A DNA stretch of 64,000 bases from a virus (Duplodnaviria > Heunggongvirae > Uroviricota > Caudoviricetes). The position numbers and the translations under genes were made by a program. Positions 1-14,214 of the stretch are shown here, piece by piece (position 1 is the first letter of the stretch; every line of letters starts with the position of its first letter). The notes beneath the pieces were generated by a model. That model searched no databases. It was not told the DNA's origin and saw only the letters and a program-made list of their open reading frames with translations. The stretch lies in the IMG/VR virus record IMGVR_UViG_3300037471_001733, positions 22,201 to 86,200 of that record; one strand, 5' to 3'.

Positions 1-116
1 ACGCCGCCGGCAGGAACTGCCCACGACATGACAGGGAAAAGCACCTGCGCGGGGGCATCGCCGGCACCCTCAATGGATACAGGGCCGACAACAACGGCTT
101 GAAGGGTCATGGCTGC

Positions 117-650
117 TCAGCTAATTGATGCGACCGTGCCGTCGCTGTTGTAGGTCCACGTCTGCAGCGTCACGCTGCCGCTCGTGACGGTGGAGACTTT
201 CTTTTTGCCGTTAACGGTGGTGTAGTTGACCGTGTAGGTCACGCCGTTGACGGTGTACGTCGCAACGGATTTGTCCGAGTTGTACGTATAGGTTGCGCCG
301 CTATTGATGATCCCCAGCAGCTTCAAATCGGCGGCATTGGTCGTCACCGAGAACCGCTTGGTGCCAGCTGAGAAATTGACCGGCAGCGTGGCGCTGCTAC
401 CGGACTGAGGCGATGTGCGCTCAAACGTATCGCCGCCGAGATACGTTCCCTCGCCGGTCTCCCACTGTCCGGTCGGCTGGTAGTTGGCATCCACGGCCTC
501 ATAGCGGTACGGGATGCGCGCGTTTACCGCAGCAACCGATTGCAGCGTGCGACGGCCCGGGAAAGGCGTCGTGGGGGACAGCGTGACGTTGCCAGTGCCG
601 GTACTTGTGCTCGTCTGAGCCACCGCGTCATGGAATTCCTTGATCGGCAT
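117..650 (-). CDS. Hypothetical virion (neck/tail-proximal) protein
   Basis: 177-aa ORF directly downstream of the head-tail adaptor gene in the structural operon; T/S/G-rich; no motif recognised. Confidence 0.4.
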   Translation of the reverse strand: MPIKEFHDAVAQTSTSTGTGNVTLSPTTPFPGRRTLQSVAAVNARIPYRYEAVDANYQPTGQWETGEGTYLGGDTFERTSPQSGSSATLPVNFSAGTKRFSVTTNAADLKLLGIINSGATYTYNSDKSVATYTVNGVTYTVNYTTVNGKKKVSTVTSGSVTLQTWTYNSDGTVASIS

Positions 651-654
651 GTGT

Positions 655-1017
655 TCAGCTCTTCAGGTTCGTGTTCTCACAAGCCAGGTCGATGAACGCC
701 CTGTCGGAAGTCGGCATGACGGCGCGGATGTCGTAAGGCCTGCCGTCAATGAGCAATCGCATCCCGGCGTCAATACCGGTGCGATGTCGGATGCGCACGG
801 ACGCGCGCACCGTGGAGAGATCTGCGCCGCCCTTCACAGCCTCAAGGCCGTTGACGTGACGCACGTCAGCCCAAAGCCGCGCGATCTCGGTCCAATCGCC
901 GACGACCTCCTGGCCGAAGTCGTCCTTTCCGCTGGGACGCTGTTGCAACGTCACCCGGAAGTTGAAGGCGCCGGCACCCATTAGCCGTAGACCTTGAATG
1001 GTTCCAGCAGTCCGCAC
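655..1017 (-). CDS. Head-tail adaptor / head closure protein (SPP1 gp16-like family, tentative)
   Basis: 120-aa ORF overlapping the gp6-like gene; expected size, position and loose sequence resemblance to phage head-tail joining proteins. Confidence 0.45.
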   Translation of the reverse strand: MRTAGTIQGLRLMGAGAFNFRVTLQQRPSGKDDFGQEVVGDWTEIARLWADVRHVNGLEAVKGGADLSTVRASVRIRHRTGIDAGMRLLIDGRPYDIRAVMPTSDRAFIDLACENTNLKS

Positions 1018-1550
1018 AGATACGGCAGCGCCGTCATCTGCTTGCCTGCAACAGCCTCACGGTTCGCATAGAAGGCGCCGACGTGCAGCAAGATCCACTG
1101 TCGAATGGACTGCGGCACATCTGCGGGGCTGGACCCGAAACCGGCGACGTAGCGCACGCGCACCGTGTTGATTTCGGCGCGCGTCGTCGGCCATGCCTTC
1201 TCGAAGGCTGGCACTAGGTATGCCGGCGACACGTCGTTGCTGTTGTCTAGAACGTAGTCCGCAGGGTCCAGCGTGGCTAGCACGCCGTCCTCATCCACGT
1301 ACTGCAGCGACTCGACGCCCAGCACCCTGGGCCACTCCAGGCGCAGCGCCTCGCCGAATGCGTCCGTCGTCATCTGCCACGTTGTGCTGATGAGCGTGCG
1401 CTGCATCTGGCCTTCGGCAAGTTGCCGAGCGGCGGTTATGAGGCCGCCTATCAGCAAGTCCTCTTCGTCGTGATCGACTCGAAGGTGCAGCTTTGCCTCT
1501 GCGACGCTCACCGGTTCGGTGGTCGCATCCACGAGCTTTACGGTTGACAT
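981..1550 (-). CDS. gp6-like head-tail connector protein (Phage_connect_1-like)
   Basis: 189 aa; N-terminal VSVAEAKLHLRVDHDEEDLLIGGLITAARQ is characteristic of the phage gp6-like connector/DNA-packaging family. Confidence 0.55.
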   Translation of the reverse strand: MSTVKLVDATTEPVSVAEAKLHLRVDHDEEDLLIGGLITAARQLAEGQMQRTLISTTWQMTTDAFGEALRLEWPRVLGVESLQYVDEDGVLATLDPADYVLDNSNDVSPAYLVPAFEKAWPTTRAEINTVRVRYVAGFGSSPADVPQSIRQWILLHVGAFYANREAVAGKQMTALPYLCGLLEPFKVYG

Positions 1551-1553
1551 GCG

Positions 1554-3239
1554 CTACCTTCTTGGACGCTTCGTGTCGTTCAGACGTGGCGCGAAGCCGC
1601 TGCCGCTCGGAGCGCGGCGATATACCTGCGTCGTGTAGACATAAGCCGACAGTGCCGACTGCTGCGTCGCAGCACGCACTACCACTGCACTCAGAGGCGC
1701 CGAGGCAGAGGCTGCATTGACCACGACGGCCGTGACCGGAACGCTGGCGTTCTGAGCAACCTGCACGATCGTGCTCAGGTCTATCGACGTGCTCACGGGG
1801 TGGCTGGCGTCGATGTAGGCGCTCAGGCCAGAAACAGCCTCTGGCTGGCTCAGAACCCCGACACTGAGACCCGCGCTGCGGGTCATGGTGTCAAGCACCG
1901 CAGCACTGACATCAGCAGCCGCCGTGACGCTGACGGCCTCCATGACCATCAGCGACAAGCCGGCCTGCGTCGACTGTGCCGCCGCGATCACGACGTCAAG
2001 CGCCGTCTCCACCGCCTGCTCAACACTCAGTGCCGCACTCAGCGCGGCCTCGACGGCTTGGGTGACCGATACAGGAACTGACAGCTCTGCCTGGAGCAGC
2101 ATCGGCACGTTGATGCAGACATCCAGCGCTGCCGACGTGACCGGCTGATCAAGAACCGCTACCGAGACCTCGGCAAAAGCTTCAACGGGCGTTTCAATCG
2201 CCGCCGACATCTCCACCGTCAACTCGGGGATGGAGTGGATCTGCAGCGACAGATCGGCCGCTAGGGTGTTGCTGAAGAGCACACCGACGCTGAAGGGGAA
2301 ACTTACCTCCGCGTTGGACACCCGGCTGAAAACCGGCATGCCAACCTGCTCGTGCGCGTAAGTCGCCGCCCAGCCGATGTCGGCCGACCAGGCCAGCGGC
2401 AGCCCTTCGTCATAGAACGGGGTGCCAGGCGTCTGCGGCGGCACCGCACCGAGGCCGCCGAGTTCCAGCACTGCGAGACTGCGGAAGCCGGCGTCCTGTC
2501 GGATGTAGACGCTCAGCCCAGTGTTGGCTGAACGCGCCTCCAGCACTGCTGCGGACAACAGCACCTCTGCCGAGCGCGGCTCGTACACGCTGACCGACAG
2601 CGCTGCATCCAGCGAGGCGCTGCGCTGGTTGAACGCCGGCTGCACACCAAGGGGCTGGTATGCATAGATCGCCGACCAGCCGATGTCCGAGGCCCACGCT
2701 TGCGGAAGGCCCTCATCGTTGGCCGGAACCCGCGGCGTCTGCGGCGGCGCTGCTGAGATGCCGCCGGCTTCAAGTAGCGCCAGGCCGCGGAAACCGCTGG
2801 CCGTGGTGACGATCTGCGCGCTCAGTTCGGCGCTGTTCGTGCGCGCGGCCTGCACCGGCGCCGACAGCGGCGCCGACACAGAGCCGGCCTGCTGGACCGC
2901 TACGGACAGCGCCGCATCAGCCTTGGAGACCGGGACGCTGATTGCGCTAAGGCCGCCAGCCTCCAGCAACGCCAGGCCACGGAAACCGCCTTGCCGAATG
3001 TAGACGCTCAGCGGCGCGCTGAGGGTCACGCCCGTGCGCGGCGCGCTGATGCCGCCCAGCTCCAACAGCGCAACACTGCGCCAGCCGCCGTCCAGACGTA
3101 CCAGCGCGCTCAGCGGCGCGCTGGCCGTGGGCTTTGTGCTGACGGCTACCGAGAGCCCAGCCGAGGTGGTGCGCCCGGGGCCGAGCGCACTGACGCCACC
3201 CAGCTCTGGTAGCGCCAGCGAGCGAAAACCGCCCGCCAC
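1554..3239 (-). CDS. Repeat-rich virion protein: five GFRxLALLExGG repeats, then an A/V/S-rich C-terminal half
   Basis: 561-aa ORF in the structural operon. Interspersed imperfect DNA repeats (core GCCAGGCCACGGAAACCGCC) at about 2455, 2770, 2965, 3065, 3190. Confidence 0.5.
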   Translation of the reverse strand: MAGGFRSLALPELGGVSALGPGRTTSAGLSVAVSTKPTASAPLSALVRLDGGWRSVALLELGGISAPRTGVTLSAPLSVYIRQGGFRGLALLEAGGLSAISVPVSKADAALSVAVQQAGSVSAPLSAPVQAARTNSAELSAQIVTTASGFRGLALLEAGGISAAPPQTPRVPANDEGLPQAWASDIGWSAIYAYQPLGVQPAFNQRSASLDAALSVSVYEPRSAEVLLSAAVLEARSANTGLSVYIRQDAGFRSLAVLELGGLGAVPPQTPGTPFYDEGLPLAWSADIGWAATYAHEQVGMPVFSRVSNAEVSFPFSVGVLFSNTLAADLSLQIHSIPELTVEMSAAIETPVEAFAEVSVAVLDQPVTSAALDVCINVPMLLQAELSVPVSVTQAVEAALSAALSVEQAVETALDVVIAAAQSTQAGLSLMVMEAVSVTAAADVSAAVLDTMTRSAGLSVGVLSQPEAVSGLSAYIDASHPVSTSIDLSTIVQVAQNASVPVTAVVVNAASASAPLSAVVVRAATQQSALSAYVYTTQVYRRAPSGSGFAPRLNDTKRPRR

Positions 3240-3250
3240 AGTGGGCTACC

Positions 3251-3727
3251 TCAGGCGGCGCCGACGATGGGCACGGCCGCCGCGTCGGTGGTCAACGTCT
3301 GGGTGTACTGAGTCGTGGAGCCATCGGTCTTCTTGACCGTCAGCGTCGCGCCGGAAATGCTGAAGTCAGCGCGCAGGCCGGTGGTCTCAAGCCACTCGGT
3401 GCCTCCCACCAAGCTCTCGTACACGTTCGACGGAACGACCATGTAGTCATGCCACACGGGCAGCGCACCGGTTTCGTTCACTGCCACGCGCAAGCGGCCG
3501 AGAGTACCGGTGTCGGTGGCATTGATGGCCACGCTGTAGTAGCCGTTCTCCATGTGCGTTGCGGTAGTCGTTTCCGACTTTTGCGCGAAGGCTGCGGCGT
3601 TCTTGGACAGGCGGATCTTTGCTTGAGTCAGCGACAGAGCAGTCTCGGCCGTGAAACCATCGGTGCTGTCAACAAACGGACCGAGCACCAGCGTGGCGGC
3701 CGTGGATTGCTTGAGAAGAGTGCTCAT
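3251..3727 (-). CDS. Hypothetical structural protein
   Basis: 158-aa ORF, 12-bp gap to the next gene, co-oriented in the structural operon. Confidence 0.45.
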   Translation of the reverse strand: MSTLLKQSTAATLVLGPFVDSTDGFTAETALSLTQAKIRLSKNAAAFAQKSETTTATHMENGYYSVAINATDTGTLGRLRVAVNETGALPVWHDYMVVPSNVYESLVGGTEWLETTGLRADFSISGATLTVKKTDGSTTQYTQTLTTDAAAVPIVGAA

Positions 3728-4455
3728 TGCGCGGACCTCAGTCGGAATTGATGCATGGAACGAGGGGCCTGTGACTGGCTGCTGCCGGAGCCGAGAACTT
3801 CGATGGCGGCCAGCGTCCAGGTCTGTGAAGCGGGGGCCGTCATGCCAATCGCGTAGGTGCCAGTGGCGCCTGAATCGGCGTGGTAGCCGTGGTACACGCA
3901 GTACTCGTTGGCCAGTGTGTCGTTGTTCTGCGCAACGGCAGCAGTGCGCTGCGTGAACGTCCCGGCATTGCTGCGGTATGTCTGCGATGTCAACGCAGTG
4001 GCCGCACGGTCGCCGATGAACATCACCGCCGCCGAGTTGGCCCCGGTGGTCGTCAAGTTGACGGACGGAGCCGTGCCGGTACCGGAGCCAGAGACAACGG
4101 CACCGACGCCGCCAGCACTGCGGAACTGGTACGCCGTCGCGCCGAACACGATGCCATCGTCTCCTTCAGTGCCAGCGCCGCGCGAGACCGAGATCGTCAC
4201 GGACGCTGCCGTGGACGCAGTGGCGGTCCAGATGTAGAGCTCAGCGTGCGACGAGTCGACCGCGACGTCCGCGCGTTGCGTGTACGTGTTCGTCGCGCTG
4301 TCGCTAACGACTAGGCCGTCAATGTGCGATTTCAGGGTGCCAATGACGACGATCAGGTCGCCAACCTGCGTCGTGAGCGACATGGTCAGCGCGCTGCCGA
4401 AGGCCTGGGCCCATGTGCTCGTGTTTACGCTGGTGACAAAGGTTGGTGCTGCCAT
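3724..4455 (-). CDS. Hypothetical structural protein
   Basis: 243-aa ORF; ATGA overlap with the upstream gene; T/S/A-rich beta-like composition. Confidence 0.45.
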   Translation of the reverse strand: MAAPTFVTSVNTSTWAQAFGSALTMSLTTQVGDLIVVIGTLKSHIDGLVVSDSATNTYTQRADVAVDSSHAELYIWTATASTAASVTISVSRGAGTEGDDGIVFGATAYQFRSAGGVGAVVSGSGTGTAPSVNLTTTGANSAAVMFIGDRAATALTSQTYRSNAGTFTQRTAAVAQNNDTLANEYCVYHGYHADSGATGTYAIGMTAPASQTWTLAAIEVLGSGSSQSQAPRSMHQFRLRSAQ

Positions 4456-4457
4456 GG

Positions 4458-5933
4458 TCAGGTTCTCTGGTAAGCGCCGCGGGTCCAGTTGCCAGCCACG
4501 CGCGGGACGCCATCCATGTCGATGTCGTACGGCGCCGCCAAGTCGATGCCGGCCGCAAAGCTGGCGGTGCTGGCGATGTGGTAATCGGCGCCGGCGTAGT
4601 TCTTGAAGATGGACGTCGGCACGCTGAAAATTGCGTTCGTTCCGGAGCCGCTGTAACTCGTGTTCGAAAACGCGTTATGCGACACCACTGAACCGCTTCC
4701 GGCCGTGATGGAGCCGCCGCTACCGATCCAGAGGTTGTTGCGCACGGTGTTGCCGCTGCCGTCCGGGAACTGGATGCCGGCGTTTCCTTCGAGGCCGCGG
4801 ATGAACGTGTTGTTGACGATCACGCAGCCAGTGCCGTTGCCGCCGTTGGTCGGGTTGCCCAGGAAGCCGATGGCGGCATCGCCGACATAGAACGTGTCGA
4901 AGACATTGCCGTACACGAAGATCGCGGGCTTGCGGCTCTGCGAGCGGTTGACGGCCACGGCGATGAGCGCGGTGCCGCCGAGCCCAGACTGGTAGCTGTT
5001 GCGCCAGACGTTGTGCCGAATGACGGTGTCGAACACCGAGAAATACACGTTGACGATTTCGCCGTGGTGCGTGCCGTTGCTCCACGCGTTCTCGCAGGCG
5101 TTGTATTCGATCACGCAGCCATCGGTCTGACGGATGAAGAAGACGTTGCTGCTGCGGTTTATGTAGTTGCGACTGAAGACGATTCCCGTACCCTGAATGT
5201 CGTTCGAGTCTGTATCGAACGTGTACGGCCGGTAGTTGCTGTCGGTCTGCGGGCCAATGCCGTAGCAGTAGCAGCGCGTGATGGTGACGTTGTTGACGGC
5301 TGTGCCGCCGAAGCGGATGTTCTGGCCGCGGGCGTTGCCGCCGGGGCCGGTGGTCGTTCCGTTGCCGCCGGACGTCGAGTGGTCGATGCGGATGCCGTAG
5401 CTGTCGCCGTCGAACCAGTTCAACTCGTTGCGCGTGCCGCCGTCAATGATCCAGTTGCTCGTGTTGATGGTGATCGGTTCGAGCTGGCTGGTGAAGTACG
5501 CCTGGCCGGTGCCGAAGGAATCTGACCAGCCCTGGTTGGTGCCGTGATCCGAGATAGTGGCCTTCTTGATCGTGATGTAGAGCGATCCGTTCGTGGCCGT
5601 GCTCAGCGTGCGCGTGGTGTAGGTACCAGACTTCAGGTAGTACGTGAATCCGCGCTGAAAATTGACTGTGCTCCAGGGCGCCACGTTGTTCCAGTCATCC
5701 CCGGATTGGTCACCAGAGGGCAGCGGACCAACGTACTTGGCATTCGTCGGCGCCTGCGCCTGCTGATCGATCTGCATTGACAGGCCGGCAGATAGAAGCC
5801 GCTGGTACCGCAATGCGAGGGAAAGCGGGCCCGACGCAATGGCGGACGCCGGCTGCGCAAACGACTCCGATGGTCGCTTGCGCTGCGGTCGCCCCATGCC
5901 GGCGCGCACTGCAATGGGCCTGCTGTACGCCAT
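4458..5933 (-). CDS. Right-handed parallel beta-helix (pectate-lyase-like) protein; putative depolymerase or spike
   Basis: 491 aa; repeated NNxFxxG...GIxF...GNTVRNNxW-type coils (NNTFIRGLEGNAGIQFPDGSGNTVRNNLWIGSGG; RHNVWRNSYQSGLGG) typical of beta-helix glycosidase or tailspike domains. Confidence 0.6.
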   Translation of the reverse strand: MAYSRPIAVRAGMGRPQRKRPSESFAQPASAIASGPLSLALRYQRLLSAGLSMQIDQQAQAPTNAKYVGPLPSGDQSGDDWNNVAPWSTVNFQRGFTYYLKSGTYTTRTLSTATNGSLYITIKKATISDHGTNQGWSDSFGTGQAYFTSQLEPITINTSNWIIDGGTRNELNWFDGDSYGIRIDHSTSGGNGTTTGPGGNARGQNIRFGGTAVNNVTITRCYCYGIGPQTDSNYRPYTFDTDSNDIQGTGIVFSRNYINRSSNVFFIRQTDGCVIEYNACENAWSNGTHHGEIVNVYFSVFDTVIRHNVWRNSYQSGLGGTALIAVAVNRSQSRKPAIFVYGNVFDTFYVGDAAIGFLGNPTNGGNGTGCVIVNNTFIRGLEGNAGIQFPDGSGNTVRNNLWIGSGGSITAGSGSVVSHNAFSNTSYSGSGTNAIFSVPTSIFKNYAGADYHIASTASFAAGIDLAAPYDIDMDGVPRVAGNWTRGAYQRT

Positions 5934-5936
5934 GAC

Positions 5937-6380
5937 TCAGCCGTCGATCTCTTCGATCGCCAGGTTGATCGTCACGTTGCCCGTGCCGCTGGCACTGCGG
6001 ATGCTGACCTGGCCGCTGACAGGCACCGGGAACTCCCAGCCGGGCGCGGCGACGTACTTGTCGATGCCGCCGTTGGCGTTGGGGCCCATGCGCCACAGGA
6101 TTGCGCCGTCCAGCGTCGGGGCTGCGGCCCAGGTCGTATAGACGCTGAAGGACGCCGCTGCGCTGGACGGGTTCAGCTTGCTGGGCGTGATCGCGCCGCC
6201 GGGCGTCGTGCCTCCGGAACTGCGCTGCACCAGGATTTCGTTGACGGCCGATGCCGTGTCCATCCCTTTGATGTCGATGACGGTGATGCGCAACGGCTTG
6301 GTGGAACTGGCGACGATGGTGAGCAGGTCGGCCGTCGTGCTGAGCGTGGTGCGGGCACGCGAAACTGAGAAGAGAGGCAT
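5937..6380 (-). CDS. Hypothetical structural protein
   Basis: 147-aa ORF with a 3-bp gap to the beta-helix gene. Confidence 0.45.
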   Translation of the reverse strand: MPLFSVSRARTTLSTTADLLTIVASSTKPLRITVIDIKGMDTASAVNEILVQRSSGGTTPGGAITPSKLNPSSAAASFSVYTTWAAAPTLDGAILWRMGPNANGGIDKYVAAPGWEFPVPVSGQVSIRSASGTGNVTINLAIEEIDG

Positions 6381-6398
6381 TGCAGGTTCTCCAGAAGA

Positions 6399-6650
6399 TC
6401 AGGGCTGCAGGTCCTGGCGAGACACCACGACCGCCCCGCTTGCGCTATCCACGTAGACACGCACGCCGGCCAGTTCGACCACGACCCACTCGACGTTCGA
6501 CTGAGCCTCCGTCCCGACATCCCTGATGCCGCGGCGGCGGAAGATCGCGCCTTCGGTGTCATGGAGCGCGACACGGACGGAGCCGTTGGACGCTGCGCGC
6601 ATGCCGCTCTGTGCGTCTGCGTCGATTTCGAAGGGGATGGGCTGGGTCAT
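6399..6650 (-). CDS. Hypothetical protein
   Basis: 83-aa ORF in the structural operon, downstream of an intrinsic terminator. Confidence 0.4.
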   Translation of the reverse strand: MTQPIPFEIDADAQSGMRAASNGSVRVALHDTEGAIFRRRGIRDVGTEAQSNVEWVVVELAGVRVYVDSASGAVVVSRQDLQP

Positions 6651-6661
6651 GAGGTGTTGGC

Positions 6662-6690
6662 GCGAAAAAGCCGCCTCGTGGGCGGCTTGT
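6662..6690 (-). terminator. Rho-independent terminator after the 162-aa gene
   Basis: On the minus strand, GCCGCC-CACGA-GGCGGC hairpin followed by TTTTT. Confidence 0.55.
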
Positions 6691-6727
6691 TAGGTGATCC
6701 GTATCTGAGAGCGCTATTAGTTGCGCC

Positions 6728-7216
6728 TCAGACTTCATCCCAGGAAAAGTAGACGCTGTCACCTTGCGCGAGGCCGCCCGTCGCAGTCGACTGCACTTCG
6801 CACATCAGGACCAAGTGGTCGCCCTTTTCGCCAGTGCTCGTGTACGGGCCGGCGCCAAGACTCAGCGCGGAGCCGGACGTGTAGCCAAAGAAGTTGTTGT
6901 AGCCGGTGGTAGCCGTGGCCTCGGCCGGCGTGGCGTAGGTGGTCACGGCCTTTGCCCACAGCAGAACACCGGTGCCCAGGCTGTTGGTGCCGTCGGAGTA
7001 CGCCTTGATGCCGGTGATCTGCGAGTACGTGCCGCCGGTCACCTCCAGGCGCAACCACTTCTCATACGAGAAATCGCTGCCGCTGGTCGGCTTGACCATC
7101 GGGTTGTTCAGATCGACGGCGCTGTTGTCCGCATTTTTGAACCGGATGCCACTGGCCGCGTCCGTCGCGGTTGCACCGGCCCCATTTTTTTGCACGATGC
7201 GAGTCGTTGCGGCCAT
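6728..7216 (-). CDS. Hypothetical abundant virion protein (possible decoration or fibre)
   Basis: 162-aa ORF bracketed by intrinsic terminators. Confidence 0.5.
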   Translation of the reverse strand: MAATTRIVQKNGAGATATDAASGIRFKNADNSAVDLNNPMVKPTSGSDFSYEKWLRLEVTGGTYSQITGIKAYSDGTNSLGTGVLLWAKAVTTYATPAEATATTGYNNFFGYTSGSALSLGAGPYTSTGEKGDHLVLMCEVQSTATGGLAQGDSVYFSWDEV

Positions 7217-7225
7217 GTGGCCTCC

Positions 7226-7254
7226 TCAAAAAGAAAAGCCGCCCGAAGGCGGCT
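7226..7254 (-). terminator. Rho-independent terminator after the 145-aa gene
   Basis: On the minus strand, GCCGCC-TTCG-GGCGGC hairpin followed by TTTTCTTTTT. Confidence 0.55.
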
Positions 7255-7276
7255 TGATGGTTGCAAGTGAAGCGGC

Positions 7277-7714
7277 TTAGGCCGGCGTGCTAGCCGGGTG
7301 GCCCTTGATCACGTTCACGGCGATGGGCGTGCCAGCGCCGTGGGTGCCGCTGAAATCAGCGGTGACCTTCAGGTAACGGCGTTCGCCGATGTAGGCCACC
7401 TTGGCGACGGTGGCCGCAGCGTGAGCAGCGGTCAGCGAGCGCACGATGCCGCCGGTGCCCACGCTGGAGTCAGCGTTGGTCAGAAGGCGCACGTCATCAC
7501 TGGTCACGGCGGTGTACGTGGTGTCGTCCTTCGAGTGAGTCAGCAGGAACTCGATCTTGTTGGACGTGGTGAACGTGATGCCGCCGACGCCGACACCGAT
7601 GGAGACAACGGCGCTGTCGAAGCCCTTGAGATCAATGGCAGAGGAGGTCGTGTCGCTGGACAGCGTGGCGTTGAGCGCCGGCACGATGGAGATGTTGTTA
7701 GCGAGGTCTCGCAT
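7277..7714 (-). CDS. Hypothetical abundant virion protein (possible capsid decoration)
   Basis: 145-aa ORF immediately after the capsid gene, with a strong RBS and terminators on both sides. Confidence 0.5.
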   Translation of the reverse strand: MRDLANNISIVPALNATLSSDTTSSAIDLKGFDSAVVSIGVGVGGITFTTSNKIEFLLTHSKDDTTYTAVTSDDVRLLTNADSSVGTGGIVRSLTAAHAAATVAKVAYIGERRYLKVTADFSGTHGAGTPIAVNVIKGHPASTPA

Positions 7715-7741
7715 GACAATTCCTTTGGAAGCCTGGGTGAA

Positions 7742-7770
7742 GAAAGGCCTGTCAGTGCAGGCCTTTTTCA
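7742..7770. terminator. Bidirectional hairpin terminator between the capsid gene and the next gene
   Basis: GGCCTG-TCAGTG-CAGGCC hairpin with TTTTT on the plus strand and TTTCTTC on the minus strand. Confidence 0.5.
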
Positions 7771-7785
7771 GTGGTCAGTCGTGGA

Positions 7786-9033
7786 TCAGGACGCGGAAAT
7801 TTTGAGCTTCTTCATCGCGTCGCTCTGACGCACGCCGCCACCGACGCGCTTGCGGGCGCGGTACACCACGAGGCCGTTGTCGGCTTCGGTGATGTAATCG
7901 GCCTGGAAGCCCAGGCCGATGCGATCAACGATGGTGTATGCGCGCTTGAAGTCACCCCACAGCACCGGGTAGGCGCTGGCCGCGATGTCCGGAAGGTCAG
8001 GGAACTCAACGTACGGAGCGCCCAAGATCGTGTTCGCCACGGCGTTGGCGAAGCCAGGGGTCCAGAGGTAGTTGCCTTGGCCGTCCTTAAGCTTGCGGAT
8101 GTCACGGATGGTCTTGCGGTTCAGCGCGAACATCGCGTTGGCAGCGTAGGCCGTCTTCAGCTCGAACTGCAGGTTGATCAGGCCGTCAGACGTGATCTTG
8201 GTAGCGTCGCCGCTGACCACCTCACCGATGCCAGAGGCCACCAGCAGGCCCTCCATTTGCTGAGCGGCGGAGCCAACGCCGTTGATGGACTCGGCGCCTT
8301 CCTTCACGGCCATCTGCTCGGCGACTTCCATGCGCAGCTCGCCAAGGAGGTCGTAGTCCGAATCCTCCAACATCTGTTGCGACACGCGGTTGCGCGCGAA
8401 CATTTCCGGGGCCGTGATCTCGCCCATCCCATACTTGGGATCGGTCGTGTCCGTACGGGTCTCGATTTCACCGACGCGCTTGGCGCTGCCGGTGCCGACA
8501 CGCTTGGGCCACTTGTACGAGTGGCCGCCGATAATGCGCACGGTGGCGAGTCGACGGATGGGCGACTGCTCCACGATGTCCTTGAGGATCGCGCGCTCCA
8601 GATCCGGCGGGGCAAGCAGGTAGCCGGCGGACTGGTCGTCGCCCTTCACCAGAGACGCCATGTGCGTCTTGATGACCTGCATGTCCTCCAGCGAGCGGGC
8701 CTCATGGCGGGTGCGCATCACGCGGTTGAACGCGGCTTGCAGCTTGGCGTTCTCGGCGGCGGAGTCGGCAGCGGTGGAGCCGGGGCGCTGCAGCATGGTC
8801 TGGACTTGATCCAGTTGCTCCTGCATGGCCTTCGCAGCATTCTGCTGGGCCAGCAGTTGCTGGTTCATGTTCTCGTAGCGATCCAGCGTATCGCTGATCG
8901 CCTCGACCTTGGCAGTCAGGTCGCCAACGGCCTTGCCGTCAGCCTTGGCCGAGATGAGCTTGTCGTTGTGCTCACGCAGTTGCGTGACGGCTTCCATTAC
9001 TTCCTGGATGCCATCATTGGTGATGTTGGGCAT
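7786..9033 (-). CDS. Major capsid protein, HK97 family, with N-terminal delta (scaffold-like) coiled coil
   Basis: 415 aa; C-terminal LWTPGF...ILGAPYVEFPDL...GLGFQADYITEADNGLVVYRARKRVGGGV is typical of HK97-type capsid proteins. Confidence 0.85.
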   Translation of the reverse strand: MPNITNDGIQEVMEAVTQLREHNDKLISAKADGKAVGDLTAKVEAISDTLDRYENMNQQLLAQQNAAKAMQEQLDQVQTMLQRPGSTAADSAAENAKLQAAFNRVMRTRHEARSLEDMQVIKTHMASLVKGDDQSAGYLLAPPDLERAILKDIVEQSPIRRLATVRIIGGHSYKWPKRVGTGSAKRVGEIETRTDTTDPKYGMGEITAPEMFARNRVSQQMLEDSDYDLLGELRMEVAEQMAVKEGAESINGVGSAAQQMEGLLVASGIGEVVSGDATKITSDGLINLQFELKTAYAANAMFALNRKTIRDIRKLKDGQGNYLWTPGFANAVANTILGAPYVEFPDLPDIAASAYPVLWGDFKRAYTIVDRIGLGFQADYITEADNGLVVYRARKRVGGGVRQSDAMKKLKISAS

Positions 9034-9049
9034 TTGGATTCCTACAGAC

Positions 9050-9076
9050 GTAAAAAAGCCCGCTCGGGGCGGGCTT
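9050..9076 (-). terminator. Hairpin plus U-tract in the 66-bp gap between protease and capsid genes (attenuator or processing site)
   Basis: On the minus strand, GCCCGC-CCCGA-GCGGGC followed by TTTTTT, immediately upstream of the capsid RBS (TAGGAATCCAAATG). Confidence 0.45.
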
Positions 9077-9099
9077 CGTTGGGCTTGGGGACGGTTTGG

Positions 9100-10182
9100 C
9101 TACTTGCTGATGAGGCTCAGGATGTGGGCCTTCAGGTTCGCCAGCTCGGTTGCGCTTTGCTCGTCACGAGCAGGCGCGGCCGGAGCCGCAGGTGCGGCAG
9201 CGGCGGGTTCCCGAGACTCGTCGCGAGGCCCGGTGTGCAGCGCGGCCTTGGCCAGTGCGATGACGCACTTGGCCTCGGCCGCAGAAAGGCCAACCGCATC
9301 ACGCAGTTGGCGCTCAAGGATGCGGACCTCAGGCGTGCCGTCGTCGTCGCCGGCAGGCACGAGGTCTTGCGGGGTGTTCTTGAAGAAGGGCAGCATGGCC
9401 GAGCGCGCATGCGTCAGCGCGGCCTTCTTCTCCTTCTTCTTGGCCGGCACCATCGTGTCGGCGAATCCTTTGTCCACGGCGTCCTGGCCGCGGAACCACG
9501 TTTCGGCGTCAACCCACGAGGCGATTTCGGCGCGGTCGCCACCGGTGCGCGCGACGTAGATGTCGATGAGGCCGGCTTCCAGCGTGTCCAGCACGTCGGC
9601 TTCCTTGCGCAGGGCCTTGGCGTTGCCGGCGAGAATCGTCCACGGCGCGTGGATCATGAAGTTCGCGCCTTCAGCGATGCGGATCTCGTCGCCGGCCATC
9701 GCAATTACGGAAGCGATGCTGGCGGCAATGCCATCGACGTGCACGATGATCTTGGCCTTGTGCGTGGCCAGCGCGTTGTAGATGCTGACGCCGTCGAACA
9801 CGGACCCGCCTGGCGAGTTGATGTGTACGTGCAGCTCATCAGCATCCAGCGCGGCGAGTTCGCGCACTGTGTCCTCGGCATTAACGCCGCCGTCCCAGTA
9901 GCCGCCGATGTCGCCGTATACAAACAGCTTCGGCGCTTCGCCTTCGTCGGCGGCCAAGCGCAGGTGGCCAGGGCCCAGCGCGCGCGGCGCCAGATTCATT
10001 GCCCGCTCGGGCAGGCCGGCGAGATTGATGACGGGTTTGGTCATTGCGGCCGTCCCTTCCTCATTGCTTTCTTGTTCCTCGCCCAACTCGGAGAGGACTG
10101 CGGCCAGCGACACCTGAGCGTCGCGGATGCGAGATTCGTTGCGGGCGCTCAGCACGCGCCCGGCGTTCAGACGTTGGCCCAT
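9100..10182 (-). CDS. ClpP-like (S14) prohead protease with C-terminal extension
   Basis: 360 aa; INSPGGSVFDGVSIYNALATHKAKIIVHVDGIAASIASVIAMAGD matches the ClpP/prohead-protease catalytic core. Confidence 0.8.
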   Translation of the reverse strand: MGQRLNAGRVLSARNESRIRDAQVSLAAVLSELGEEQESNEEGTAAMTKPVINLAGLPERAMNLAPRALGPGHLRLAADEGEAPKLFVYGDIGGYWDGGVNAEDTVRELAALDADELHVHINSPGGSVFDGVSIYNALATHKAKIIVHVDGIAASIASVIAMAGDEIRIAEGANFMIHAPWTILAGNAKALRKEADVLDTLEAGLIDIYVARTGGDRAEIASWVDAETWFRGQDAVDKGFADTMVPAKKKEKKAALTHARSAMLPFFKNTPQDLVPAGDDDGTPEVRILERQLRDAVGLSAAEAKCVIALAKAALHTGPRDESREPAAAAPAAPAAPARDEQSATELANLKAHILSLISK

Positions 10183-10185
10183 GGG

Positions 10186-11481
10186 CTACCCTTGGTTGCG
10201 CGCTGAAAGCGCTTGACTGGATGCCGCCAAGTCGTTGTTGTCTTGCTGTGCCGGGGCCGCGCCAGCGGGGTTGCTTGGCATGCCTAATTCCGGATCAGAG
10301 GCGTCGCCCATGTTCACGGGCGCGCGGTAGATTTCGCCGCCCTCGTACGGGTTCTGCTCCTCGTAGGCGCGGATCTCGTTCGCGTTGAGCGCGCCCATCT
10401 GCCAGAGGCGGAAGTAGTACTCGGCGCGGTCACGCGCGGCGCCGCGCATCAAGGCATTGGCGTTGAACTTCGCGTAGATACCGTCGTCCAGGTCACGCTC
10501 GCTAAGCAGGTTGCAGTCGATGCTCTGCTCGATGCGTTCGTACCAAGGCGCCAGGCAGTGCACCACGTGCGCCAGGAACATCTGCTCCGCGCTGGCGTAA
10601 GTGGCCGTCTTGTCGCTGTAGCCGACCATCAGTGGCGCGCACCTAAAAATTCTGCACACCTCTTCGATCTGGTGACGTCTCGTTTCGAGATGCTGGCTAT
10701 CAACGCCCGTCATCGACGTCGGCACAAACTTGGCGCCGCGGTCAAGAATCATCGGGCGGAATCTCGCTTCGCCTGTCATGTTCTTCTCGACCCAGTTGCG
10801 CAGAGCAAGGAACTGGTCCGGAAGCAGCTTGTCGTCCACGCTGTAGATGCCAGTGGACTGCGCGCCATTGGCATGCATCAGCGCATGCGCCTCTTCGGTC
10901 GCCATCGCAAGGCCTATGGCCTCGCGAGCCAACTGCAACGGCTTTAGGCCGTCATAGCCGTTCCAACTCAGCCCTTTGACGTGCCAGATCGCCTCAGCCG
11001 GGAAGTCCTGCGACTGCCCAGTGATCTCGCTGCTTACGCGGTACACCGGCCGGCGGAACTGGTCCACATCCACGCACACCTCGTGCGGGAGAAACGGGAT
11101 CAACTCGCGGATCTTGCCGTTGACGACGTTCTTGAACGCCACGAAACGACCGGCCAAGCACACATGCGCGGCCAGCATCTCGCGGAACTCGAAGGACGTC
11201 TGCCAAGGGTTCGGCCGGCGGTACAGCACGCGATACAGCGGGTGGTCCTTCGCCGGATCGCTGCCGCCGTCGTCACGCTCCTTGTAGAGCTTCAAGGGCA
11301 CCTGCGCGATGCCCTCGGCAATCACGCGCACGCACGCCAGGACCGTCGTCACCTGCAGCGCGGTTTCCACCGTGACGTTCTGACCCGAACGCGACGCAGG
11401 AAACCAGCCGCTCCAGAAAGGCTCAGTGAACGCCTGCGCCCGGCGCTGCCGCGGCGCCATCATCTTCGACAGGAAACTCAC
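10186..11481 (-). CDS. Portal protein, HK97 family
   Basis: 431 aa, positioned between the large terminase and the protease; sequence typical of HK97-family portals. Confidence 0.8.
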   Translation of the reverse strand: MSFLSKMMAPRQRRAQAFTEPFWSGWFPASRSGQNVTVETALQVTTVLACVRVIAEGIAQVPLKLYKERDDGGSDPAKDHPLYRVLYRRPNPWQTSFEFREMLAAHVCLAGRFVAFKNVVNGKIRELIPFLPHEVCVDVDQFRRPVYRVSSEITGQSQDFPAEAIWHVKGLSWNGYDGLKPLQLAREAIGLAMATEEAHALMHANGAQSTGIYSVDDKLLPDQFLALRNWVEKNMTGEARFRPMILDRGAKFVPTSMTGVDSQHLETRRHQIEEVCRIFRCAPLMVGYSDKTATYASAEQMFLAHVVHCLAPWYERIEQSIDCNLLSERDLDDGIYAKFNANALMRGAARDRAEYYFRLWQMGALNANEIRAYEEQNPYEGGEIYRAPVNMGDASDPELGMPSNPAGAAPAQQDNNDLAASSQALSARNQG

Positions 11482-11756
11482 TCGGCAGCCTTCCCGTCAC
11501 CGGCACGCGCGCGGATGCCCATCAGGCCCAGGCCCAGCGCCAGCAAGCCGCCGACGATGAAGCCAGCCGGCAGGGAGTACAGGCCGGTGCCATAGGCAAC
11601 AGCCCCGGCGCCGCCCAGCGCCAGCATGTCCGGCATCAGAAAGGCCAACAGTTCGCCGCCGGCCGCAATCAGGCCCAGCATGGCGCGGCCAAGGGTCAAC
11701 ATTCGGCGGGCCAGAAATGTCCTGGCACCGGCGATCTTCGTTCGCAGGTTTTTCAC
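11478..11756 (-). CDS. Small hydrophobic protein between terminase and portal
   Basis: 92 aa, Gly/Ala/Leu-rich predicted membrane segments; overlaps the stop and start of both neighbours. Confidence 0.4.
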   Translation of the reverse strand: MKNLRTKIAGARTFLARRMLTLGRAMLGLIAAGGELLAFLMPDMLALGGAGAVAYGTGLYSLPAGFIVGGLLALGLGLMGIRARAGDGKAAE

Positions 11757-13513
11757 GGCGTCAGGACTTCCCAGAATGACTTTCCAGTGGACTCGGTGGT
11801 TCTGGACATCAAGCCCACGGCCATCACAGCCGCCACGATGAGGTCGATGCGGCCCGTGGCCTTTTCCTTGCTGAGCTTGCGGTTCTCGGCGTCATCCATC
11901 ACCGTCACCGCGTTGCTCGCACACCAGTTGAAAACTGGGTGGTCGTTGTGCGCCAACTCGTTGTTGAGCAGCATTCGCTCGAACTCTTCAACGGCTGGCG
12001 AAGCCTCTTTGTAACCTTGCCCGAACGCGACCATGGGCGGTAGGCTGATGCCTTCGTCGTCGGCAAGCGCCAGCAAGTCTTCGATGCGCCAGCGGTCGTA
12101 TGCGACGCCCTGGATCTCGAATGCCTCGGACAGCGCGGACAGCCGCTGCAGCACGTTGCGCTTGCTGATCGCGCGCCCCGGCGTGGTGTCCAAGTGCCCG
12201 GCAGCTTTCCACTGCACGTAGGGCACTCGATCGGTTTCGGCCTTCTTCTGCAGCCCCTCATCAGGCAGCCAGGCGAACGGCACTAGGTGCCACGGCTCGC
12301 CTTCCTCTTGCGGCTCAACCAGCAGCACCAGCCCCGTAAGGTCGGTGGTGGACGACAGGTCCAGCCCGGCCCAGGCTCGCCGGCCGCGCAGGTCTTGCCA
12401 GTTGAAGGTGCGAATCGCACTCTTCCAAACGTCGGCCGACAGCCACGGCGAATCGGCATCCGTCCACTGGCAGAAATTCAGCCGGCGGACGATCGCCTCC
12501 TTAGACGGCATGCCGCGCGCTTCGGTCACCTGCTCGCGCAGGTACTTCATGCCCGGCAGATCGGCGTCCTGCAGCGAAGGGTTGGCCTTCACCCAGCACG
12601 ACTCGTCCGAGAAAGGATCCTCGCCTTCATCTAGGGCGCACACGAAACTGAAGAACGCATCGTCCTCCAGCGTCCCCGCTGCGACCTTTGCGCCGTACTC
12701 GTGGTACGCCCAGCACGGCCCCCGTTTGTCGGAGCCGCTGTTGGTGATCATGAAGATCAGCGCCTGCCGCCGGCTCTTGGTGCCGGCGCGCATCATCTCC
12801 ACGACCGTGTTGGTCTTGTGCTCGTGCAGCTCGTCGATGAGCGCAATGTGCGGCCGCGGGCCGGACTGCCCATCGTCCGAGCTGATCGGGCGGAAGAAGC
12901 TGCCGGCCTGCAGGTAGGCCAGGTTCCACACCCGCTCGCCCGTGCCGCTCTTGGTCAGCCGCTTAGCGAGTTCCGGCGACTGGTCCACCATGGCCACCGC
13001 GTCGCGGAAGAGGATCATGGCCTGATCCTTCTTCGTCGCCGCAGCGTAGACCTCTGCGCGCGCCTCGCTGTCGGCGGTCAGGCCAAGAAGCCCAATGCCC
13101 GCCGAAAGGGGCGACTTCCCGGAGCCCTTGGCCGTCTCGACGTAGGCAACACGGAACCGCCGCCAGCCGTCAGAACCCTTCCAGCCGAACAGACTGCCGA
13201 TGACGAATTTCTGCCACGGCAGAAGCTCGAAGGGCTTTCCCTCAAAGTCGCCGCCGTTGAGCTTCAGGACGTTGCGGTAGTACCGCAGCGCCTTCAGGGC
13301 GGTCTCCAGGTCCCAATTCAGGCCGCGTGCCGGGCCTTTCTCCAGGTCGCGCAGGTGGCGCGCGCATGCCGCGCGCACATGCGGGCCGGCGATGCGTTTG
13401 CCGTCAACGACGGATTGGGCGTACTCGGTGACCGGATCGTCACCAGTCGGGACGTCAGCCGAAGAATTCCTGTAAGTGGTCTTCCTTTTGGTCGTCGTCG
13501 GCGTTTTGGACAT
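11753..13513 (-). CDS. Terminase large subunit
   Basis: 586 aa; Walker-A-like ETAKGSGKSPL plus a C-terminal nuclease-like region; Terminase_1-type. Confidence 0.85.
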   Translation of the reverse strand: MSKTPTTTKRKTTYRNSSADVPTGDDPVTEYAQSVVDGKRIAGPHVRAACARHLRDLEKGPARGLNWDLETALKALRYYRNVLKLNGGDFEGKPFELLPWQKFVIGSLFGWKGSDGWRRFRVAYVETAKGSGKSPLSAGIGLLGLTADSEARAEVYAAATKKDQAMILFRDAVAMVDQSPELAKRLTKSGTGERVWNLAYLQAGSFFRPISSDDGQSGPRPHIALIDELHEHKTNTVVEMMRAGTKSRRQALIFMITNSGSDKRGPCWAYHEYGAKVAAGTLEDDAFFSFVCALDEGEDPFSDESCWVKANPSLQDADLPGMKYLREQVTEARGMPSKEAIVRRLNFCQWTDADSPWLSADVWKSAIRTFNWQDLRGRRAWAGLDLSSTTDLTGLVLLVEPQEEGEPWHLVPFAWLPDEGLQKKAETDRVPYVQWKAAGHLDTTPGRAISKRNVLQRLSALSEAFEIQGVAYDRWRIEDLLALADDEGISLPPMVAFGQGYKEASPAVEEFERMLLNNELAHNDHPVFNWCASNAVTVMDDAENRKLSKEKATGRIDLIVAAVMAVGLMSRTTESTGKSFWEVLTP

Positions 13514-13955
13514 GAACCTTGGACCTCGCGGCCGGCGTCAGCCCGAACTCGACCAGCCACGCCTTGAAGCGCCGGTCGGCATCGGCCAGCATGGCCACCG
13601 CCGGGTTCGCTTTGATGCTGCGGTCGCCCTGCGTGTTCGTTGTTTCGTAGGTAGGGCCGTCCTGGTTCACCAGTTCCTGATACCGCAGGATCTCGGCGTA
13701 CACGGCGCAGCCTCTCTCAAGGGCGTAGGCATCGGCCTCGGTTAGCACGCCCATCCGATCCAGCAGCACAGACATGCGGCCCCAGGCAACCTTGGCCTCG
13801 TCGGACAAGTGGCTGGGGCAACTAGGTATCTCGCGGCGTGGTTTGGGCTCGCTCTTGTTGAGCGCGCGCCTTCCCGGGTTGCCTGTAACTATTTTTAAGT
13901 GGCTCGGTTTTGGCCTGCGCCCCGCCATATCTCTATTCCTTGACTGGCCAGCCAT
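13455..13955 (-). CDS. Terminase small subunit, P27 family
   Basis: 166 aa; KPSHLKIVTGNPGRRALNKSEPKP...FGLTPAARSKV is typical of P27-family small terminases. Confidence 0.7.
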   Translation of the reverse strand: MAGQSRNRDMAGRRPKPSHLKIVTGNPGRRALNKSEPKPRREIPSCPSHLSDEAKVAWGRMSVLLDRMGVLTEADAYALERGCAVYAEILRYQELVNQDGPTYETTNTQGDRSIKANPAVAMLADADRRFKAWLVEFGLTPAARSKVHVQNADDDQKEDHLQEFFG

Positions 13956-14214
13956 CCACCCCGATCACCGGCCGAACTCGATGACCTAGATCTCGCGCCG
14001 TTTTGTCACGGTGACAGGGGGTACATAGCCCCTGAGCCTGGCCCGGGTCTTCGTGGAAGTCCTTGCCGCCGTTGACTAGCGCGACTTTGTGGTCCAACTG
14101 AGTTGCGGCAGCAAGTCGGCCATGGCGTGAGCACTCAGCACAAAGCGGGTTCAGCCGCAAGTAGTAGTCGCGGAACCGCTGCAGCGGGCGGCCACGCAAG
14201 CGATCAGTGGCCAT
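13933..14214 (-). CDS. HNH endonuclease (terminase-associated)
   Basis: 93 aa; CAECSRHGRLAAATQLDHKVALVNGGKDFHEDPGQAQGLCTPCH is an HNH motif; overlaps the small terminase start, as in cos-packaging phages. Confidence 0.75.
   Translation of the reverse strand: MATDRLRGRPLQRFRDYYLRLNPLCAECSRHGRLAAATQLDHKVALVNGGKDFHEDPGQAQGLCTPCHRDKTARDLGHRVRPVIGVDGWPVKE

Follow-up and report, generated by a model that had tools for sequence, protein, structure and literature searches.

A mobile gene cassette between the capsid and head-tail adaptor genes of a tailed phage and its possible role as a virion-borne glycan-binding and depolymerising fibre

Why should eight genes lie between the capsid gene and the head-tail connector genes of a tailed phage? 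We addressed this question for a 64,000-nucleotide stretch of DNA from a virus of the Caudoviricetes (positions 22,201 to 86,200 of IMG/VR record IMGVR_UViG_3300037471_001733), in the following called the window; coordinates given without a locus name are window positions. A late operon with all genes on the minus strand occupies the leftmost 14 kb of the window. Upstream the block is flanked by the gene for an HK97-family major capsid protein (MCP; 415 aa, 7786-9033; PF05065, 1.4e-60) and downstream by the gene for a gp6-like head-tail adaptor of 189 aa (981-1550; PF05135, 1.8e-7; phrog_442, 5.8e-27). Between them lie, in the direction of transcription, the open reading frames (ORFs) g145 (7277-7714), g162 (6728-7216), g83 (6399-6650), g147 (5937-6380), g491 (4458-5933), g243 (3724-4455), g158 (3251-3727) and g561 (1554-3239). 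A preliminary description of this DNA had listed the same eight genes; all are present and co-oriented, and the Pfam and PHROG matches of the flanks establish that they separate the HK97 capsid gene from the gp6-like and gp7-like connector genes. It had also regarded the ∼6-kb interval as unusual, which agrees with the short distance from the MCP to the connector gene in known relatives: a single gene separates the two in Pseudomonas phage VW-6S, and a few genes do so in Rhizobium phage RHph_X2_25 (L001), two of them homing endonucleases (L001 10386-12582). We propose that the interval combines a decoration gene of the head module, g145, with a mobile late-operon cassette, g162 to g561, for an accessory glycan-binding and depolymerising fibre that would be carried on the virion, probably at the neck or head. 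We give this reading about an even chance of being right.

The mobility of the cassette became apparent when we compared the window with the loci L069/L065. At the protein level the large terminase subunit (TerL) was 86% identical, the portal protein 30%, and the MCP showed no match. Behind this MCP we observed identities of 94% for g162, 77% for g83, 93% for g147, 91% for g491, 95% for g243, 91% for g158 and 67% for g561, followed by 67% for the adaptor and 51% for the head closure protein. The stretch from g162 to g158 is thus 77-95% identical behind an MCP without a tblastn match to that of the window, which argues against specific binding of these products to the capsid lattice. At the DNA level the homology to L069 restarts exactly at position 7259, in the terminator of g145, and extends to 2080 at 85% identity, and the homology to L071 runs from the portal gene through g145 and ends at 7216. 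The terminator in question, found by a terminator scan, consists of a hairpin (stem 7236-7255) and a U-tract and is followed by a ribosome-binding site (RBS). The stem GCCGCCTTCGGGCGGC and the RBS GGAGGCC are conserved, nearly identical, in four head backgrounds, at 7216-7259 in the window (minus strand), 5970-6031 in L065, 6695-6755 in L073 and 7417-7491 in L071. Because it coincides with the ends of the DNA homology, the g145 terminator is likely a recombination linker, the joint between head module and cassette. Judged by these comparisons, the seven genes from g162 to g561 are a mosaic, horizontally exchanged cassette. The preliminary description had named an acquired accessory cassette as an alternative for the whole block; g162 to g158 are indeed exchanged together among phages whose head modules differ, but g145 stays with the head module.

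Further variants of the cassette were found in L071/L013 and in L073/L078, where L078 is a prophage in an isolate genome. In these variants the frame is kept and the contents are exchanged: the beta-helix bodies are 39% and 28% identical to g491, the body of the ∼243-aa protein differs, additional genes for proteins of 168, 292 and 170 aa are present, and the g561-type protein is divergent. PHROG scans of the additional cassette proteins in L071 and L079 were essentially empty, and a 215-aa protein at the g162 position in L071 gave a weak match to a 'head decoration' PHROG (8e-5). The first cassette gene, g162, lies between two terminators and is 88-94% identical in L065, L078 and L185 despite their differing MCPs; it has no match in Pfam, PHROG, PDB or the GenBank phages. 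For g83, which has no Pfam or PHROG family, the identity in the same three loci is 72-80%. The small beta-rich protein g147 is 77-93% identical across the sibling cassettes and has no PDB or GenBank-phage match; a homologue with 65% identity occurs in the portal-to-scaffold gap of the unrelated phage L079, together with a homologue of the 168-aa protein. As a separate observation, the longest ORF of the L078 MCP (6073-7605, 510 aa) opens with a signal-peptide-like stretch, MKKSILLAACAALAAVASAAVAG, perhaps because its start was mis-called or because its N-terminus carries an unusual extension.

The remaining gene of the block, g145, follows the capsid gene instead. In a tblastn synteny survey we detected a g145 homologue immediately 3' of the MCP gene in every locus (52 IMG/VR loci and two GenBank records), at MCP identities of 28-68%; many of these loci are contigs of 15-17 kb with the order portal-MCP-g145-connector-TerL, and phage RHph_X2_25 also encodes a homologue. 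Inheritance together with the MCP is visible from the relatives: g145 is shared with the head block of L071, and both genes are replaced in L065, where the different MCP is accompanied by a 149-aa protein in the position of g145 that has no relationship to it. The eight genes are therefore not one capsid-associated set, as the other seven were found behind differing head modules, and the earlier suggestion of a capsid-associated group holds for g145 only. None of the eight block proteins matches Pfam, and g145 alone matches a PHROG (phrog_5707, function unknown, 1e-13). A profile of the g145 family (31 sequences) retrieved a single PDB chain, 8cjz_B, named 'Capsid Decoration Protein', in a weak match (E 0.0049, 90 of 133 positions); a literature search on PDB 8cjz returned nothing. 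Three of the 31 family members weakly matched Pfam Bbp16, the cement protein of phage BPP-1, with an E-value of 0.0076, below the usual cut-offs. Because of this weak homology and the strong linkage to the MCP, g145 is a probable capsid decoration or cement protein of the head module and lies outside the cassette. Independently of this, the g145-like layout in L037-L052 (IMG/VR, 15-17 kb, several from isolate genomes) is reminiscent of capsid-forming phage satellites (cf-PICI-like).

Three hairpin-plus-U terminators had been reported for this region, and all of them are present on the minus strand. Sequence inspection located a hairpin with U6 in the gap between protease and MCP genes, just ahead of the MCP RBS (9052-9076; −18.4 kcal/mol for the fold of the 66-nt gap RNA), and a hairpin with U5 after g162 (6665-6688; −23.5 kcal/mol), which is also found in L065; the third is the g145 terminator described above. 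A fourth hairpin with a U-rich tail, previously unlisted, lies 18 nt past the MCP stop (7739-7768; −19.0 kcal/mol). All four intergenic gaps of at least 60 nt thus contain a hairpin-plus-U site on the coding strand, and the hairpin after the post-MCP gene is kept in four relatives. A generic terminator scan showed no region-wide enrichment (12 found versus 10.5 expected from shuffles); the weight of these sites lies in their position and conservation, not in their number. From g147 onward the intergenic spacing is −4 to +18 nt, with the g243 stop overlapped by the g158 start (ATGA), and no sigma-70-like promoter was found. The differential expression proposed in the preliminary description is consistent with this pattern, and the order of the sites along the sequence would fit a stepwise attenuation from capsid-level to connector-level expression. 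In L185 (6382-7041) an HNH gene lies between g162 and g83, at the exact site of the window terminator.

What kind of proteins does the cassette encode? For g491 the AF2 model (57-sequence alignment) reached a predicted local distance difference test score (pLDDT) of 85.7 and a predicted template modelling score (pTM) of 0.85, with residues 1-60 unstructured (pLDDT <55), and Foldseek searches against PDB and BFVD agreed with the beta-helix fold. At the level of the model this establishes a right-handed parallel beta-helix of the pectate-lyase-like type, as had been recognised from the translation. The beta-helix domain, a putative polysaccharide lyase or hydrolase, is encoded at 4458-5738, and the N-terminal module (∼residues 1-65), our proposed docking segment, at 5739-5933, both on the minus strand. 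The structural neighbours include the matrix-dispersal lyase RbmB, and the protein also resembles tailspikes. Although g491 itself has no Pfam match, 9 of the 57 aligned homologues match PF13229 Beta_helix (best 3e-9) and two match NosD; the residues R94, K124, H130, N343, N400 and D472 are invariant in the family. The family profile retrieved nothing from the PDB sequences, with no sequence-level match to any solved lyase, an exact look-up of the protein found it not to be on record, and tblastn of g491, g561, g147, g162 and g243 against the GenBank phages gave no match.

The N-terminus is the part that sets the phage copies of g491 apart. Cellular homologues with 38-48% identity carry Sec signal peptides and are located in bacterial exopolysaccharide (EPS) clusters with Wzx/Wzy, glycosyltransferase and Asn-synthase genes. 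Where these homologues have the signal peptide, the phage copies begin with MAYSRPIAVRAGMGRPxRxRPSES...GPLSLALRYQRLLSAGLSMQID. The N-terminal ∼55-65 aa are common to the window, P0002, P0019 and L073, the enzyme body of L073 being just 28% identical. This segment contains two repeats of the 14-aa type found in g561, 14 residues apart, which score 14.8 (residue 48) and 8.8 (residue 34) with a position-specific scoring matrix (PSSM) built from the g561 14-mers; control proteins of the window score at most 9.7, and g491 is the top window protein other than g561. Receptor-binding enzymes anchored to the particle typically keep one terminus while the body is exchanged, and its sequence suggests that g491 may be one of them. 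The gene lies outside any tail-fibre or baseplate module, between the MCP and adaptor genes. Some cellular homologues (P0004, P0014, P0028, P0032, P0043 and P0045) are fused to Ig-like, fn3, PKD, LamG or DUF4082 domains.

A similar division into constant and variable parts was observed for g243. Its body is variable and its C-terminal peptide SSQSQAPRSMHQFRLRSAQ (∼3727-3786) constant: proteins at this position end in a conserved basic peptide, (S)QAPRSMHQxRQR, that always abuts the start of g158, and in L073 and L185 the body is exchanged with the peptide retained. The adjoining g158 is the most conserved component of the cassette, with 1087 metagenomic homologues, the top 120 of which are all 156-158 aa long at 59-91% identity. 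It was found at 362 IMG/VR loci, and the GenBank phages (∼50,000 deposited genomes) hold a single relative. The label 'novel' in the preliminary description thus applies to cultured phages only, as the metagenomic count for g158 alone demonstrates. The N-domain of g158 (residues 1-114; 3386-3727) also forms the N-terminus of longer proteins, giving an overall range of 157 to 1224 aa, and in SU10-like podoviruses g158 is 60-67% identical. A g158 profile retrieved nothing meaningful from the PDB. We had considered the 14-mer-repeat proteins P0184 and P0190 as fusions of g243 and g561, an idea that was dropped as g243 has no similarity to their N-terminal domains.

The 561-aa protein is repetitive, as described before. 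We identified five copies of a 15-aa motif A, G[FW]RxLALLExGGxSA, which are also seen as 38-nt DNA repeats (2454-2491, 2760-2797, 2952-2989, 3051-3088 and 3195-3232), two ∼50-aa units of the form PPQTP...DEGLP.AW..DIGW, a basic C-terminus and ∼25 degenerate 14-aa repeats of the form LSVxVxxxxxxxAx, dense over 1605-2294. The periodicity reaches z = 9.2, 6.7 and 4.7 at offsets 14, 28 and 42. At the DNA level the 14-aa repeats are too degenerate for Tandem Repeats Finder, which reported trivial 12-nt matches only. The AF2 model, built from a three-sequence alignment, is unreliable (pLDDT 33.7); it gives one strand per 14-mer. A summed match to the designed Pizza6 beta-propellers in the PDB was discarded as repeat or composition noise (i-Evalue ∼0.6 per stretch). 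Relatives are rare, with 33 among 1.84 billion representative proteins, several of them with motif A or long 14-mer arrays and one with a LamG domain. Directly ahead of the adaptor gene we found positional analogues in L071, L073 and the podovirus L188, which share LALL..GG motifs, beta-type repeats and an SGF-plus-basic C-terminus. The distant relatives P0184, P0186, P0187 and P0190 (450-1675 aa) have long and cleaner 14-aa arrays (e.g. TASLSAAIQxAxxA) and globular N-terminal domains, LamG in P0187; these arrays may be beta structure or a two-heptad coiled coil.

The genomic context of homologues indicates where such parts can be encoded. A trio of genes, for an enzyme of 436-619 aa, a protein of 229-243 aa and g158, recurs within head-gene clusters of unrelated siphoviruses and SU10-like podoviruses. 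Phages with three HK97 head types have it between MCP and connector or adaptor genes, as do the SU10-like podovirus L188, where the enzyme is an apiosidase-like glycoside hydrolase, and the Mu-F/Portal_3 siphovirus L189, whose tape-measure gene is followed by several more genes. In L186 the trio is found between portal and MCP genes, a gap that contains g158 homologues in L196, L199 and L203, and longer g158-domain proteins follow the head-closure gene in L087, L258, L261 and L267. The tail genes of the relatives are arranged in the order tail tube protein, tail assembly chaperone and tape-measure protein (TTP-TAC-TMP), a 300-aa gene, a 616-640-aa gene, then holin and endolysin, and the tail end includes a tailspike-like protein in L082 (phrog_4636, 9.5e-110). 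As the relatives have this gene after the tape measure, the cassette is probably not the sole receptor-binding equipment. In L082 (15687-18510) and L083 (15711-18588) just two genes, for a 300-aa phrog_6278 protein and a variable 616-640-aa protein, separate the tape measure (1383-1391 aa) from holin and endolysin, an unusually small tail-tip set for a siphovirus. At 8992-12969 of L012 (GenBank MW202897, uncultured phage) the MCP and a g145-like protein are followed by proteins of 113, 47 and 276 aa, a 709-aa GDSL-like esterase and the connector, an analogous enzyme cassette in this interval with a different enzyme class.

Together these parts suggest the following mechanism, in which virion presence, attachment site, subunit contacts and substrate are what we infer. 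The protein g145 would be made in near-capsid amounts, the terminators after the MCP gene and g145 would then reduce transcription, and g162 to g561 would be read through from the late structural operon. The repetitive, beta-rich g561 would serve as shaft or scaffold. The beta-helix enzyme g491 would degrade polysaccharide; its origin would be a bacterial exopolysaccharide locus, and a docking segment made of the g561-type 14-aa repeat would have taken the place of the signal peptide. The swappable and possibly sugar-binding g243 would dock via its conserved C-terminal peptide onto the highly conserved g158, with g162, g83 and g147 as small structural or assembly partners. The complex would sit on the virion at the head-neck region rather than at the tail tip and would bind and cut the capsule or biofilm polysaccharide of the host, and so let the particle attach reversibly at first and reach the cell surface. 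We favour mounting at the head or neck because of the recurrence in head-gene clusters, because the tail end has a tailspike-like gene of its own and because known fibres offer parallels.

Several points weigh against this proposal. The match of g145 to a decoration protein is weak (E 0.0049), the lectin reading of g243, which itself has no Pfam match, rests on a weak Laminin_G_3 match in the positional counterpart in L190, and with an unreliable model of g561 (pLDDT 33.7) the term fibre shaft rests on periodicity and analogy. The marker panel with which the g158 homologues were placed detects head genes better than tail genes, and the counts given above are not frequencies. Furthermore, longer g158-domain proteins adjoin J-like tail-tip genes in L074, L235 and L240. 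In L074 the lambda-J-like central tail fibre gene is directly followed by a gene for a 237-aa protein with the g243-type C-terminus and then one for an 880-aa fibre-like protein with the g158 N-domain, and in the podovirus Microcystis phage Mvi-Yong1342-1 a g158-domain protein closes the structural module. Because the g158 N-domain and the g243-type peptide occur near J-like genes and at the end of a podovirus module, the same parts can belong to tail fibres, and the preliminary wording 'rather than tail genes' was too strong. In the relatives just the 300-aa and 616-640-aa genes separate tape measure and holin, so that other parts of the tail tip could be encoded at another place, and g491 is structurally tailspike-like. 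It could therefore be argued that g162 to g561 encode side fibres or tailspikes for the tail tip and that only their genes were relocated to the interval between head and connector genes. We consider this unlikely: the trio is found within the head-gene clusters of at least five unrelated lineages, including L189 with its several genes after the tape measure, the relatives already have a tail-end tailspike-like protein, and the cassette lies upstream of the adaptor gene, with the connector genes and a further gene block between it and the tail genes. A position downstream of a J gene, as observed for the domain homologues in L074 and L235, is not seen in the window or its four sibling loci.

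The products might also not be part of the particle at all, and act instead as soluble late proteins that are freed at lysis and dissolve biofilm or capsule, or as a means of remodelling the host surface when expressed from a prophage. The cassette is indeed mobile and bounded by a terminator, g491 derives from enzymes of host exopolysaccharide loci and has the matrix-dispersal lyase RbmB as a structural neighbour, and no structural-protein family matches any cassette member. Of the characteristics of a moron or lysogenic-conversion gene, terminators are present, but a promoter-like site was not found and the composition is indistinguishable from that of the neighbours. The genes share the strand of the late operon and are closely linked with the structural genes, their junctions overlapping or spanning 2-18 nt. 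In addition, the phage g491 has lost its signal peptide and gained an N-terminal module that outlasts swaps of the body, which is typical of particle-anchored receptor-binding proteins, and neither a repeat protein of 561 aa nor a g158 domain shared with proteins as long as 1224 aa is readily reconciled with a soluble enzyme. This explanation therefore appears to us somewhat less probable still than relocated tail fibres. By far the least probable is that all eight products decorate or stabilise the HK97 lattice. This reading finds support in the location right behind the capsid gene, in a terminator pattern that points to strong expression of g145 and g162, in the match of g145 to a decoration protein and in the weak match of the 215-aa protein of L071 to the 'head decoration' PHROG. 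On the other hand, the high identity of g162 to g158 persists where tblastn fails to align the MCP and the post-MCP protein is a different one. An enzyme whose catalytic body can be exchanged does not fit the role of a stabilising cement protein, and podoviruses whose SU10-type capsid proteins are unrelated also have homologues of g147 and g158.

To place the proposed virion-borne cassette among known systems, we compared its parts with described particle components. Tailspikes and depolymerase receptor-binding proteins (Det7 gp208, HK620, the tailspike proteins of CBA120, Klebsiella and Acinetobacter capsule depolymerases) combine a conserved N-terminal particle-binding domain with exchangeable beta-helix bodies. 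In contrast to these, the gene of g491 lies between capsid and adaptor genes and not in a tail-fibre module, its N-terminal segment is short, modelled at low confidence and repeat-containing without a known anchor domain, and its closest sequence relatives are bacterial EPS-locus proteins. From the EPS-locus lyases and hydrolases (Vibrio RbmB, Salmonella VexL, PL6 and PL9 lyases) the phage g491 differs by the missing signal peptide and the lack of a sequence-level match to a solved lyase. The jellyroll cement and decoration proteins (Bbp16 of Bordetella phage BPP-1; PDB 8cjz chain B) are, like g145, small and encoded right after the MCP, though the matches are weak. Accessory fibres on the head or neck are also known. 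The head fibres (gp8.5) and neck appendages (gp12*) of phi29 belong to a podovirus, have no sequence relationship to the cassette proteins and are not encoded by a multi-gene cassette with g158- or g561-type parts. In T4 the wac gene (fibritin) adjoins the neck genes 13 and 14. Such whiskers and the neck fibres of Anabaena myophage A-1(L) are accessory and neck-mounted, as proposed for the cassette, but they are coiled-coil or bead-chain fibres without enzymes in myoviruses and have no sequence relationship to it. A-1(L) is reported to have five such neck fibres, which a pentadecamer in the neck anchors (PMC10966104).

Two further systems suggest possible modes of attachment. In the head spikes of RcGTA a base pentamer with a jellyroll fold, Rcc01079, carries a single fibre, Rcc01080, which docks by means of the hydrophobic repeat IALGLGLGL at its N-terminus; the fibre binds the polysaccharide of the capsule and mediates the first attachment to it (PMC7296036). 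The g561-type proteins of L071 and L073 begin with MSLGLGPLGTHALGL and MSLSLGALSLQAAGL, and g561 has five LALLELGG-type motifs, a resemblance that is visual only: no RcGTA chain turned up when the PDB sequences were searched with the proteins g561, g147 and g162 and with profiles of g145 and g158. Unlike the cassette the RcGTA spikes include no enzyme, and Rcc01079 and Rcc01080 are reported separately from the main cluster with its numbered g-genes. The long tail fibres of the podoviruses SU10, T7 and KP32 attach to the adaptor ring just under the portal (PMC9509320), and in SU10-like podoviruses the g158 trio lies beside SU10-type portal, MCP and adaptor genes. SU10's own fibre genes, in contrast, follow the adaptor gene, and the window phage is a siphovirus relative with tube and tape-measure genes. 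The idea of a shared fibre dock was dropped, as the window adaptor has no detectable similarity to SU10-type adaptors. As a wider and more doubtful extension, the cassette may represent a widespread class of head- or neck-mounted, multi-subunit branched fibres in which short conserved terminal peptides would plug exchangeable glycan-degrading enzymes and binders into a shaft of 14-aa repeats and a constant g158 adaptor. Recombination at the conserved terminator joint would carry the complete unit from one siphovirus or podovirus to an unrelated one, and RcGTA-like hydrophobic repeat peptides might fasten the shaft.

Around the block we annotated, on the minus strand, the small terminase subunit (TerS, 13455-13955), TerL (11753-13513), a 92-aa ORF between TerL and the portal gene, the portal protein (10186-11481), a ClpP-type protease (9100-10182) and, beyond the adaptor, the head closure or head completion protein (655-1017; PF05521, 2.6e-23; phrog_25, 1.3e-20) and a 177-aa ORF, g177 (117-650). 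The GC content at third codon positions of the eight block ORFs is 0.78-0.88, similar to the flanking structural genes, at an overall GC content of 0.63-0.66. The remainder of the window consists of phage early genes, e.g. for HNH, RecT, RdgC and helix-turn-helix (HTH) proteins; no tRNA was found in the window and no nucleotide match to positions 1-14000 among the GenBank phages. An HNH endonuclease gene (14553-15449) lies immediately upstream of the small terminase gene, which we take to be the usual arrangement in cos-type HK97-like phages. A second inserted block starts with g177 (117-650) and continues past the left edge, between the head-closure gene and the gp10-like and gp17-like tail-joining genes. 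In relatives (L065 12615-16536, L071 14936-18992, L073 14329-18233) g177 is followed by ∼120-aa and ∼180-aa proteins and an 815-833-aa protein with SWM_repeat/Big_13 Ig-like domains, and the N-domain of g177 is found widely across diverse metagenome-assembled genomes.

The types of element combined here are known: an anchored depolymerase, a decoration protein, accessory fibres and mosaic joints. For the specific g158, g561 and g243-peptide parts and for their placement in head-gene clusters across lineages we found no described counterpart, and they are nearly absent from deposited phage genomes. Virion depolymerases and host-range modules are usually sought at the tail end of a phage genome, whereas here an enzyme-plus-fibre module lies inside the head-gene cluster. 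Should the particle carry its products, a common class of receptor-binding equipment would be escaping annotation pipelines and host-range prediction, and the docking ends (the g491 N-terminus, the g243 C-terminus and g158) would offer a plug-and-play scaffold for engineering depolymerase specificity. The recruitment of g491, with its signal peptide turned into a docking segment, would then be a clear example of how phages build such enzymes.

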